This document shows, piece by piece, positions 26,216 through 34,736 of a DNA stretch of 64,000 nt (position 1 is the first letter of the stretch; each line of letters starts with the position of its first letter). Position numbers and translations under genes: made by a program. The notes under the pieces are model-generated. The model was not told the origin of the DNA, did no database searches, and saw nothing but the letters and a program-made list of their open reading frames with translations. Origin of the DNA: Bdellovibrionota bacterium (lineage in GTDB: Bacteria > Bdellovibrionota_C > UBA2361 > CAKMMH01); assembly GCA_050952645.1 (NCBI GenBank), contig JBMNLI010000009.1, positions 9,037-73,036 on the forward strand, read 5' to 3'.

Positions 26216-26605
26216 TTATAATGCCATATCTTTTAATCCTTTAAGAGCCGTTACTTTAATACGAGTAGAAGCTGGCTTAGCAGGGATGTCCATTAATTCC
26301 CCTGGTTTAAAAGGATTAGGAACTCCTTTTTGAGCTTTTCTAGCAGCTACTTTCTTAGTTGAAATCTTTAAAAGACCTGGTAATGTAAAAGTGCCAACAG
26401 CATTTTTCTTAACGTGGCGTTCTATTTGAACTCCAAGCTCATCTAATACTGATGATACTTGTTTCTTATTTAAACCAGTGTTAGCAGCGATTTCAGTTAA
26501 CAACTCATTTTTAGTCATGCTTTTTGATACAGCAGATACTTTTTGTTTTTTTGCACTAGGACATGCGCTTGCGCATGATTTTGAACTTTTATTTGATGTT
26601 GCCAT
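26216..26605 (-). CDS. HU-family DNA-binding protein
   Basis: MTKNELLTEIA, FTLPGLLKI, NPFKPGELMDIPAKPA. Confidence 0.93.
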   Translation of the reverse strand: MATSNKSSKSCASACPSAKKQKVSAVSKSMTKNELLTEIAANTGLNKKQVSSVLDELGVQIERHVKKNAVGTFTLPGLLKISTKKVAARKAQKGVPNPFKPGELMDIPAKPASTRIKVTALKGLKDMAL

Positions 26606-26889: not shown

Positions 26890-28055
26890 CTATTTTAACA
26901 CTTTCCACTCTAGGTCTTGTTTAGTGCCTACTTGCTCAATATAAGATTTTTTTCTAAGCGATGCTAGTGTTCGTTGAACGGTTCTTGCAGTTTTAGAAAT
27001 CTTATCTGCCAACTCCTGTGTCGATAGGGTAGGGTTTTGTTTTAATAGAGCATACACCGCTTTTTCAGTGCCATTTAAAGTCGCATCTAAAGTAATTTTT
27101 GAAATATCGCCTTGAATTAAAGGGCGATAGATTATAAATTTAAATCCGTTTTCTTTATTTTCATAAGCATACTTGATTTTTGAATCTTTACACAAACTAT
27201 CTATTCTCTTAAAACCACTACCAAACTGCTCTATGTATTTACTTAAATATAAAATTTTTGAGATTGTCGCATTTCTTATTTCAGACTCAACATTTCCTTT
27301 TATATAATCTTCAGGTTTATGCTTACTAGCATAATTCCCAGGGCTATATATAGTTATCATACTCGGGTGAATACATATCTCATGGATAGTCTTACTTCCA
27401 TATAATGCATGAGCAAACCCATTTGCTAAAATCTGGTTCTTCACGTTTTAGGTGGGTTAGAAAAATTGTTTTTGGGGGTTAGCTTAAAAGAAAATTGGCT
27501 TTTATAGAAAACTATCTATAGTTTAAAGAAAAATTACAACTATATTTAAAGTAATTTATTTTATGCAAATTTCTTTAAAGTCAATTTTCTTTTGGGCTTC
27601 GTGAGGTGAGTGATACTAATTTTAAGGTCTTTAGCCCACTTAAAACGTGAAGAGCCTAAAATCTCTCTAATTACCACAGTCGGAACTTCTGGAATTTCAA
27701 TTCTTTCAGAGCCTATAATTTCACTTTTCCATCTAATGTTTTTAAATATATAATCTTCCGCCTTACTTAATAAATTATAAATATTATCTTCATATAATTT
27801 CATATCTAGTATGGTTAGTTTTTCATCCGTTGCAAATATACCAACTTTTAACTGCACGGGATTAGTGCTACTAAAAAGAACCTCCCCGGCATTAATTAAA
27901 TACTCATCTTTAACTAGACCAAATTTATTTAAAATCATTGGGACGGTATACTTACCATCGGGCAATCTCCCTGCCTTAATCGCTTTTTGCCAAAAAGATT
28001 TCACAGCCTTTTTATCAACTTGGTTCGATAAAGAGGTAGATTTTCCAAGGTTCAT
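26890..28055 (-). pseudogene. HATPase_c_4 ('RecG C-terminal-like') plus wHTH regulator, split by a MITE and lacking the usual N-terminal AlbA/Schlafen domain
   Basis: Removing 27435-27656 plus one TSD copy restores ..VVIREILANGFAHALY..; RNATIS, IEQFGSGFKRI motifs; C-terminal wHTH (ELADKISKTARTVQRTL). Confidence 0.85.
27435..27656 (+). mobile_element. MITE family A, full-length 222-bp copy (ISL3-like ends)
   Basis: TIRs ggttcttcacgttttaggtggg / cccacttaaaacgtgaagagcc; perfect 8-bp TSD taaaatct. Confidence 0.95.
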
Positions 28056-28080
28056 TTTATATCTCTCCTTTTTTTTCTAA

Positions 28081-28900
28081 GCGACACTTTTGTCGCCAGT
28101 GACGACATTTTTGTCGTCACCTTTTTTAAACAAAATAAAACTTTGTCTAGTTTAATTTAGCAATTATACATTCTCCTTTAATAACAATATGTTATGCCAT
28201 TTCTAAGGCGTTTTAAACTAAAATTTTTTATAGATTATAGCCATAAACTAAACACTTTTTTTAAGCTATATGCGACACTTTTGTCGCCAGTGACGACATT
28301 ATTGTCGCCTATAGCGACATTTTTGTCCATCTCCTTTTTTAAAGAAAAGAAAGCTTGTCTAGTTTAATTTGGCAAATATATATTCTCTTTTAATAACAAT
28401 ATGTTATACCATTTCTAAGGCGTTTTAAACTAAAATTTTTTATAGATTATAGCCATAAACTAAACACTTTTGTCGCTATATGCGACACTTTTGTCGCTAG
28501 AGGCGACACTTTTGTCGCCCTCCTTTTTTAGTTTAAACTTTCCCCTGTTTTACGTATACAATTTTAATTTTAATTGCATAACTCACTGAAATCATTTAAA
28601 AAAATTTTTAAAAGTGCTTGCACAAAATGCTAAAATAGCATACGTATTATACGTATACCCTTAAGAAACGACAGATACCAGCCTTAGGCTAAATTTTAGG
28701 CTCTTAAAAAACTATAGTATACGTAAAACAAGGGAAAGTTTGGGATAGATTACAGCCATAAACTAAACACTTTTTTTAAGCTATATGCGACACTTTTGCC
28801 AACTAGTGACGACATTATTGTCGCCTATAGCGACACTTTTGTCGCCACTTTTTTTTAAAAGAGAATAAAACTTTGTCTAGTTTAATTTGGCAATTATAGT
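28081..28900. repeat. Tandemly duplicated ~190-210-bp modules with 21-bp-phased CGACA-N4-TGTCG palindromes
   Basis: Intact palindromes at 28081, 28102, 28272, 28293, 28482, 28503, 28809, 28830; degenerate ones at 28314, 28461, 28787. Confidence 0.9.
28535..28741. mobile_element. MITE family B (25-bp TIRs)
   Basis: aaactttcccctgttttacgtatac / gtatacgtaaaacaagggaaagttt (1 mismatch); second partial copy at 23303; no clear TSD. Confidence 0.7.
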
Positions 28901-28942: not shown

Positions 28943-29545
28943 ATGGAATTTAAAATTATAGAAACAACTTTTATAGGTGGCTACAATGTGCTTTCTAAAA
29001 TGCCTACAAACTTACCACAAATAGCACTTCTTGGGCGCTCAAATGTGGGAAAATCAACGCTAGTAAATAAATTATGCAAAAGAAACTCGCTAGCTAAAAC
29101 TAGCAAAACCCCAGGACGCACTAAAGAGTTTAACTTCTTTGAAATCACTTATAAAATTGATGAAACTAAAAATAAATTCCACTTAGTAGATCTCCCAGGG
29201 TTTGGATTTGCTAAATTTTCAAAAACAAAACAAATATCGCTTAACAAAAATATCGTCAAATACCTAGCCTCAGATTTACCACTTCTTGGCGTGTTTCTCC
29301 TAAACGATTCTAGAAGAACACCTAAAGAAGATGAACTAGCCATTCAAAAATTATGCTTTGAAAATAATAGATTCCTACAAATTATTTTAACTAAAATCGA
29401 TAAACTTAAAAAAAATGATATAAAAAAGCAATTATCCATTATCGCTGCTAGCTACAACTTAGAGCCACAAGATTTACTACTAAGCGGAAACGATATAGAC
29501 ACTAATAATATTTGGAAAAGAATTTTTGAAAGTGGTTTCTTATAA
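28943..29545 (+). CDS. engB: Ribosome biogenesis GTPase EngB/YihA
   Basis: GRSNVGKSTL, SKTPGRT, DLPGFG, TKIDK; ATG 28943 preferred over TTG 28904. Confidence 0.95.
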   Translation: MEFKIIETTFIGGYNVLSKMPTNLPQIALLGRSNVGKSTLVNKLCKRNSLAKTSKTPGRTKEFNFFEITYKIDETKNKFHLVDLPGFGFAKFSKTKQISLNKNIVKYLASDLPLLGVFLLNDSRRTPKEDELAIQKLCFENNRFLQIILTKIDKLKKNDIKKQLSIIAASYNLEPQDLLLSGNDIDTNNIWKRIFESGFL

Positions 29546-33926: not shown

Positions 33927-34736
33927 GGTTCTCACGTTTTGGGTGGGTTAGAAAAGTTGTTTTTGGGGGTTAGCTTAAAAGAAAATTGGCTTTTATAGAA
34001 AACTATCTATAGTTTAAAGAAAAATTACAACTATATTTAAAGTAATTTATTTTATGCAAATTTCTTTAAAGTCAATTTTCTTTTGGGCTTCGTCGAGGTG
34101 AGTGATACTAATTTTAAGGTATAAAATCACCTTTAAAAGTGAAGAACAAAAGTTGTTTTTGGGGGTTAGCTTAAAAGAAAATTGGCTTTTATAGAAAACT
34201 ATCTATAGTTTAAAGAAAAATTACAACTATATTTAAAGTAATTTATTTTATGCAAATTTCTTTAAAGTCAATTTTCTTTTGGGCTTCGTCGTGGTGAGTG
34301 ATACTAATTTTAAGGTATAAAATCACCTTTAAAAGTGAAGAACAAAAGTTGTTTTTGGGGGTTAGCTTAAAAGAAAATTGGCTTTTATAGAAAACTATCT
34401 ATAGTTTAAAGAAAAATTACAACTATACTTAAAGTAATTTATTTTATGCAAATTTCTTTAAAGTCAATTTTCTTTTGGGCTTCGTCGAGGTGAGTGATAC
34501 TAATTTTAAGGTATAAAATCACCTTTAAAAGTGAAGAACAAAAGTTGTTTTGGGGGGTTAGCTTAAAAGAAAATTGGCTTTTATAGAAAACTATCTATAG
34601 TTTAAAGAAAAATTACAACTATATTTAAAGTAATTTATTTTATGCAAATTTCTTTAAAGTCAATTTTCTTTTGGGCTTCGTCGAGGTGAGTGATACTAAT
34701 TTTAAGGTCTTTAACCCACTTAAAACATGAAGAGCC
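33927..34736 (+). mobile_element. MITE family A tandem array (4 x 196 bp) between pilB and pilC
   Basis: One left TIR at 33927; units start at 33952, 34148, 34344 and 34540; right TIR ends at 34736; flanks aaaaatat/aaaaacat (7/8 TSD). Confidence 0.93.

Follow-up and report, generated by a model that had tools for sequence, protein, structure and literature searches.

The DNA analysed here (the window, a stretch of 64,000 nucleotides from a Bdellovibrionota bacterium) contains an array of eleven 16-bp palindromes beside a divergent gene predicted to encode a Schlafen (AlbA_2)-GHKL ATPase-winged helix-turn-helix (wHTH) protein. Comparing this locus with its relatives, we conclude that the array probably represents the adjacent gene's autoregulatory operator, in which TGACA has likely become CGACA alongside an Arg-to-Thr substitution in the wHTH, and which was then probably multiplied neutrally. 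Because the Schlafen gene is now broken, the array is likely a relic.

The palindromes share the frame GCGACA-N4-TGTCGC; eight are exact and three are degenerate. They lie in four clusters. Cluster 1 (28081..28117) contains two palindromes with a 21-bp period, starting at 28081 and 28102. Cluster 2 (28272..28329) has intact palindromes at 28272 and 28293 followed by a degenerate one at 28314, cluster 3 (28461..28518) has a half-degenerate one at 28461 followed by intact ones at 28482 and 28503, and cluster 4 (28787..28845) has a degenerate one at 28787 followed by intact ones at 28809 and 28830. Half-sites recur at 21 bp ten times and at 22 bp once. An earlier note on this DNA had reported this count and spacing, and we recovered all of it. 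The note had also described tandem modules of about 190-210 bp and had placed the first palindrome 25 bp upstream of the start of the divergent gene. We found modules that repeat at 189-212 bp and are 83-92% alike (TRF: period 212, 2.1 copies, 88%), and the ATG at 28055 confirms the distance of 25 bp. CGACA-N4-TGTCG occurs in the window eight times exactly and once with one mismatch, compared to 0.13 expected and a maximum of one in 100 shuffles. A scan of the 1.95-Mb genome, as the note had suggested, placed all eight exact copies in the array, and CGACA/TGTCG arms with other spacer lengths (0 to 11) were absent throughout that genome. The note had considered that the modules might be a plain dispersed repeat; the palindromes and module bodies are confined to this locus and only a short motif (motif B, described below) is dispersed genome-wide. 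Three overlapping contigs from run X2 of a second study span 27910-28438 with zero differences. Modules 1 and 2 are therefore not an artefact of assembly. Between clusters, the body of the module is present as copy 1 (28118..28271) and copy 2 (28330-28481). Copy 1 contains minus-strand TATAAT boxes at 28239-28234 and 28168-28163 that face the Schlafen gene and, although lacking a good -35, may serve as its promoter. The second palindrome (28099-28120) has 9-bp perfect arms with both sides changed (ACGACA..TGTCGT), as arm-to-arm copying would give.

The Schlafen gene is encoded on the minus strand in two pieces. In the 5' piece (27665..28055), the native start MNLGK is fused in frame to the equivalent of residue 138, showing that about 133 codons encoding the AlbA_2 nuclease domain have been lost. 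The 3' piece (26890..27432) encodes a HATPase_c_4 (GHKL) domain (PF13749, E 2e-10, 41 bits with a cut-off of 26) and a C-terminal wHTH for which both HTH_24 and HTH_11 score above cut-off; its recognition helix is KTARTVQR and the Thr codon of helix 2 lies at 27021-27019. The pieces are separated by a 222-bp ISL3-like MITE (MITE A, 27435..27656) flanked by an 8-bp target duplication (27427-27434 and 27657-27664). MITE A has 163 hits in the genome, 44 of them at least 150 bp long, and the genome contains one ISL3 transposase. Elsewhere in the window, between pilB and pilC (33952-34708; C9:42988-43744 in contig coordinates), MITE A is part of a tandem array with a 196-bp period and 3.9 copies that are 99% alike. 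The loss of the nuclease domain and the split frame bear out the earlier proposal that the gene has been inactivated. The proposed identity of the gene held in part. A wHTH is present and HTH_11 passes its cut-off, but the gene is a nuclease-less Schlafen-GHKL-wHTH gene and not a WYL/HTH_11 regulator; a WYL domain is absent from the window's protein and none was found in the 94%-complete genome. The homologues are 444-residue proteins with SLFN_AlbA_2, HATPase_c_4, and wHTH domains that are 75-80% identical to the window's protein; named homologues are few and largely from Firmicutes. The SLFN_AlbA_2 domain with its Ex4(E/D)xK motif, deleted in the window's gene, is present (PF04326) in these homologues, and matches to PF04326 in this genome are on contigs C6, C10, and C15 only. 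PADLOC gave only weak partial hits. The wHTH was modelled as three helices and a wing (pLDDT 84-91) with Thr50 at the first turn of helix 2. A fold search with this domain matched generic wHTHs, none at E 0.001 or better; searches of solved structures with the wHTH or the close homologue P0001 alone found nothing, and those with a profile or fold found generic wHTHs. Both gene pieces have dN/dS near 0.1 relative to the nearest homologues, so the gene break is recent on that scale.

The locus is flanked by host genes, with an HU-like gene (hup, 26216..26605, minus strand) on one side and the GTPase gene engB/yihA (28943..29545, plus strand; TIGR03598 above cut-off) on the far side of the array. 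In a genome of the same genus (G001), the gap between hup and engB is only 465 bp and has no palindromes. Judged by this gene order, the Schlafen gene and the array arrived as an insertion of ~1.9 kb between hup and engB.

We examined 80 metagenomic loci encoding close homologues, 75 of which had a mapped start. Exact CGACA-N4-TGTCG was found upstream of none of the 75. These genes instead carry GTGACA-N4-TGTCAC, with a second, half-degenerate site 21 bp on. The check on homologues outlined in the earlier note therefore failed for the exact motif and revealed TGACA-N4-TGTCA in its place. Among the 75, the TGACA-N4-TGTCA dyad was present in 42, an N5 dyad in 11, and a 21-bp half-site period in 44. 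A 37-bp two-site consensus that ends 18-24 bp before the ATG was matched by 45 of the 75; it lies over the gene's own promoter, with GTGACA serving as the -35 and TATAAT 17 bp on. Cluster 1 occupies the same position in the window. Pairs of sites in the window match this consensus at 22-26 of the 37 positions and keep its loops; in cluster 4, the segment 28809-28845 matches at 26 of 37 with the loops in ancestral order. The arms in the window depart from the consensus in concert, with C replacing T on the left and G replacing A on the right. Here the proximal site is now perfectly palindromic, and the ancestral embedded -35/-10 has been lost. An N4 loop was seen in only 1 of 59 distant family loci (0/17 of CGACA type, 1/20 of TGACA type, and 0/22 of GGACA type). 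The shared position, consensus, and loops, together with the near-absence of N4 in distant loci, argue that the array descends from the gene's own operator. The linker of full-length homologues also carries GTGACA/TGTCAC copies; these are kept in 58 of 60 and are lost in the window, where GCGATA and GCGAC are found instead. Across the family, a repeated upstream 7-mer was shared with the gene's own linker in 61 of 131 genes, compared to 8 for mid-gene DNA and 17.8 (maximum 31) for shuffles.

We wished to relate the base that differs between these operators to the protein. The family set contained 167 loci, all but one from searches of Clostridia and Bacilli, with four genomes left unscored. 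Of these, 132 were intact enough to use after 16 with short frames, 15 without a clear N-terminus, and 4 with short flanks were dropped, and 67 of the 132 showed a dominant xGACA half-site within 150 bp upstream. At position 4 of the recognition helix, Lys occurred with GGACA in 22 of 24 loci and Arg with CGACA or TGACA in 34 of 37. The first residue of helix 2 then separated the latter two classes in 34 of 34 loci (TGACA: R11, I3, V2, K1; CGACA: S10, A4, T2, Q1). In 2000 label shuffles the best column never equalled this rule (mean 0.43, maximum 0.80 bits). In a phylogeny from which the wHTH was excluded, the base switches five times and the residue class follows in 5/5 independent pairs (p 0.0625), or in 6/6 (p 0.031) when the window is included. 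A held-out set of 97 further loci, 62 of them usable, contained 11 that were scoreable, and all 11 fit the rule; these loci are kin of the training loci and the rule was chosen after inspection of the data. In thirteen held-out loci that share the Arg helix, no xGACA site was dominant. The rule rests on 34 of 132 intact and 11 of 62 held-out loci and on five independent switches apart from the window.

The close homologues also follow this rule, with Arg and TGACA in all 52 that were scoreable. Arg is at the start of helix 2 in all 114 parsed proteins among 120 hits, and the window's protein, which sits inside the TGACA clade on starred branches of the tree, is the only one among its close kin with Thr. 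From this Thr the rule predicts CGACA, as is seen in the window. The last 75 residues of the window's protein have a dN of 0.23-0.27, compared to 0.09-0.13 between homologues. No close relative that combines Thr and CGACA was found. We also asked whether a Val-to-Ala substitution in the recognition helix (KTVR to KTAR) could explain the shift from T to C, and rejected this idea, because GTGACA sites accompany proteins with ISAR and VSAR helices, and because NVT linkers occur in two KTARTVQR proteins and an NVA linker in one VTARTVQR protein. In the available portions of a report on DriD of Caulobacter crescentus (PMC10853764), Arg37 and Arg41 of the recognition helix read guanines, the outer C is read by Glu40, and the DNA contacts given do not include helix 2. 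Since the equivalent base in DriD is read by Glu40, the helix-2 residue in our family may act indirectly or mark a linked change.

Position, geometry, and the residue-to-base rule all agree with the earlier suggestion that the palindromes are a predicted operator for the adjacent wHTH. Thus, the array is likely the cognate operator of this gene after a specificity switch. In the mechanism we propose, a wHTH dimer would use its R-x3-R helix to bind each palindrome, in the manner of DriD, and would repress its own promoter to keep the predicted tRNase low. Hairpin-driven copying between arms could have put the new base into both arms, and unequal recombination may have produced the four modules; the specificity switch would have come first, followed by nuclease loss and then amplification. 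More generally, we lean toward the view that the family uses a small, rewritable code in which Arg or Lys in the recognition helix specifies (C/T)GACA or GGACA, the first residue of helix 2 specifies T or C, each gene has a private operator, and the locus in the window records one such switch. If each gene evolves a private operator, several nuclease paralogues in one cell could repress themselves independently. In line with private operators, neighbouring family genes on one contig each have a different half-site (G504:C12, G721:C4, G562:C11, G425:C1, and G1059:C1).

The amplification calls for a separate explanation. The array has 20 exact CGACA half-sites in 850 bp, twice the number at any other locus examined; none of 51 close homologues had more than 6, and no other family locus, where flanks were shorter, had more than 10. 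An upstream duplication of at least 80 bp was found in 1 of 188 family upstream regions. This exceptional load of sites, which is more than pure chance duplication requires, could mean that the array was selected as a multi-site platform (a sink, loop, or roadblock) for the nuclease-less protein that tunes its own level or the divergent engB promoter. Consistent with this, all sites are phased at 21 bp (once 22), 8 of the 11 palindromes are perfect though the module bodies drift, and the gene pieces have the low dN/dS noted above. However, the low dN/dS may predate nuclease loss, and the putative binder is split by a MITE here and seemingly deleted in another strain. A second MITE-like element (element B, 28535..28741; 207 bp with 28-bp inverted ends; 37 genome hits, 10 of at least 150 bp) lies inside the array, where it separates clusters 3 and 4 and occupies the place expected for a module body. 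G001 expresses engB without the array. Duplications of this size are also common in the genome, where we counted 59 tandem arrays with a period of at least 60 and 46 clusters of local direct repeats (unsorted, coding repeats included). We therefore consider a selected platform unlikely. For the same reasons, and with parB genes on other contigs, the titration, looping, or partition platform put forward in the earlier note is not supported. The four modules are probably the product of unselected local tandem duplication through unequal recombination.

Sequencing runs also differ at this locus. In run X3, one contig joins 26957 to a palindrome, with 30 letters on the short side. Such a junction, which could have formed through 15 bp that are identical at 26947-26961 and 28070-28084, would delete nearly the whole Schlafen gene, and the gene therefore seems to be gone from this strain. 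Run X3 also contains a module flanked by cluster-4-type units, and run X6 contains a variant cluster 4. In runs X5 and X7 no contig fell on the array, an absence that carries no weight. Module content thus differs between runs, and the amplification looks to vary between strains.

The earlier note had proposed promoter-like strings directed at engB. Such strings exist, but they lie within a dispersed motif and are at chance level (8 promoter-like sites in the region compared to 5.4 +/- 2.8 in shuffles). This motif, motif B (19-24 bp, core TGTCTAGTTTAATTTGACA), contains TTGTCT and is found in the array at 28144..28162 (plus strand), 28356-28374, and 28874-28892. The genome contains 18 copies at three or fewer mismatches, compared to 3, 0, and 2 for shuffled motifs. 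They are intergenic and lie between ordinary or housekeeping genes; those in the window start at 28144, 28356, 28874, and 62244 (C9:71280). Motif B was absent from the five other genomes and the viral contigs searched, and no transposase or inverted partner was seen beside 14 copies. It may represent the end of an element or a binding site of the host.

This genome contains four more Schlafen-GHKL-wHTH paralogues with different helices, at C1:2849-3892 (minus strand), C6:320-1615 (plus), C10:91338-92731 (minus), and C15:8014-9399 (plus). The C6 and C10 paralogues are interrupted. The C15 paralogue is intact and has TGGCACCGAT repeats upstream, with an apparent MITE A remnant between the repeats and the start. 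The C1 paralogue, like the window's gene, has no AlbA_2 domain. An alternative explanation is that the array is read in trans, most plausibly by the C1 paralogue (helix VSVRTIER, with Ala in helix 2), or derives from a wHTH gene that has since been lost. The C1 frame is open over GHKL and wHTH, its recognition helix has a DriD-like Glu, the rule predicts CGACA for it, and its linker has four CCGACA copies. By contrast, C1 relatives (VTKRTIER and similar) use N5-N7 dyads and 10-12-bp direct repeats, with N4 in 0 of 17, and the loops, spacing, and position of the array fit the subfamily of the adjacent gene. A WYL protein that might act as the reader was not found in the 94%-complete genome. Taken together, these data make a reader in trans quite improbable, although the C1 protein could bind these sites today.

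The clusters might also act as plus-strand intrinsic terminators or RNA hairpins, with the match to the protein being incidental. Every cluster ends with a hairpin and a run of 6-8 T, there are 10 terminator-like sites compared to 0.6 in shuffles, and folding z-scores are -5.6 to -7.7. However, any palindrome folds, the T runs correspond to an A-rich flank or ribosome-binding stretch of the minus strand, and there is no upstream gene on the plus strand to terminate. Rfam gave no match to the array. A terminator would also have no need for arms whose sequence changes in step with the protein, as is the case here, and we regard this explanation as very unlikely. Still less credible is a partition site, CRISPR-like array, coding remnant, or plain dispersed repeat: although the 16-bp palindromes are clustered, the minus strand reads as 7-residue repeats (GDKSVAY-like), and one 19-24-bp part of the module is dispersed, ParB_N is on C11 and C17 only with no parAB beside the array, the spacers are 5 bp, no open frame of at least 70 residues crosses the array, the palindromes are limited to one locus, and 60 loci elsewhere with two palindromes at 21 bp have mixed neighbours.

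Those 60 loci came from a search for palindrome pairs at 21 bp in which each species was represented by one genome. Their context was TetR, HTH_36, AAA_14, peptidases, and coding repeats; for 33 of them we scanned the neighbours, 65 proteins in all, and found neither AlbA_2 nor HATPase_c_4. In 40 relatives, lone palindromes were scattered and about as frequent as in controls. Several of the loci have features of their own. In L107 and L153 (also L117, L124, L138, L139, and L160), CGACA..TGTCG repeats at 21 bp lie inside reading frames; the L107 and L153 proteins have an N-terminal HTH_36, which recalls iterons inside replication-initiator genes. In two Acholeplasmatales genomes (L125 and L143), AAA_14(/DUF4143) ATPase genes are preceded at a distance of about 370 bp by a CGACA-N4-TGTCG pair with 21-bp spacing. 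Four Marinimicrobia loci (L118, L135, L140, and L163) and L122 have a conserved palindrome pair in a divergent intergenic region before M16 peptidase or histidine kinase genes, and these pairs are probably the regulon of some factor. Proteins P0128, P0135, P0137, P0156, P0175, and P0185 have 5-8 tandem wHTH repeats related to the DNA-binding tail of the Schlafen-GHKL-wHTH family.

The amplified array itself, probably a relic beside a dead gene, is less important than the earlier note hoped. The lasting value of the locus lies in the predicted code by which the proteins of a large and little-studied candidate defence family would recognise DNA; Schlafens that combine a GHKL ATPase with an HTH tail rank among the most frequent in bacteria. 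If the code is correct, binding sites of thousands of such proteins would be readable from sequence, and one residue, both operator arms, and the intragenic copies would all have changed in one lineage. The locus and its relatives would thus form a natural before-and-after pair for a change in DNA specificity, which is rare. Our literature searches, which covered listings and the opening parts of abstracts, returned no paper on operators of the Schlafen-GHKL-wHTH family, and these look-ups gave no prior description of the residue-to-base rule.

Type II toxin-antitoxin operons and the C proteins of restriction-modification systems provide examples of autorepressed toxic genes with operators over their own promoter. 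The Schlafen family resembles them in having two phased dyads over the -35/-10 of a nuclease gene and orthogonal sites between paralogues. It differs from them in that the nuclease and the putative repressor are one polypeptide and copies of the site lie in the coding linker. The insertion that broke the gene resembles ISL3-type MITEs, with GGCTC-type ends, an 8-bp target duplication, and one ISL3 transposase in the genome; this likeness concerns only MITE A, which was classed by its own ends. Among prokaryotic Schlafens (pSlfns), the HisKinase-HTH class makes up 19.2% of 5,930 proteins according to the available text of PMC13056530, in which defence by this class is not demonstrated. From what is accessible of a second report, the "Schlatpase" with a C-terminal HTH (bioRxiv 10.64898/2026.05.29.728809) is the same family, with Pfam domains PF04326 and PF13749 and a wHTH. 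The available portions of these two sources (PMC13056530; bioRxiv 10.64898/2026.05.29.728809) assign the HTH neither an operator or binding site nor a role, and "operator" and "palindrom" have 0 matches in the former. Homologues at 75-80% identity have all three domains of the HisKinase-HTH class, whereas the window's gene keeps GHKL and wHTH, has no nuclease domain, and is split. The closest parallel for the binding site is DriD, a wHTH-WYL-WCX protein that, in the accessible parts of its description, is an ssDNA-sensing activator with a regulon and binds CGAC-N7-GTCG through an R-x3-R helix (PMC10853764). The statement in the earlier note that HTH_11/WYL-type regulators bind CGAC-Nn-GTCG sites was thus right in kind. 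DriD differs from the window's protein in its spacer (N7 compared to N6) and in its WYL domain, which the window's protein does not have, and the sites in the window are at one locus only. As far as the same source extends, the two are alike in having a CGAC..GTCG dyad with an AT-rich centre, an R-x3-R helix (R37/R41 in DriD, R62/R66 in the window model), and a site in their own promoter, which in homologues lies about 17 nt before the start.
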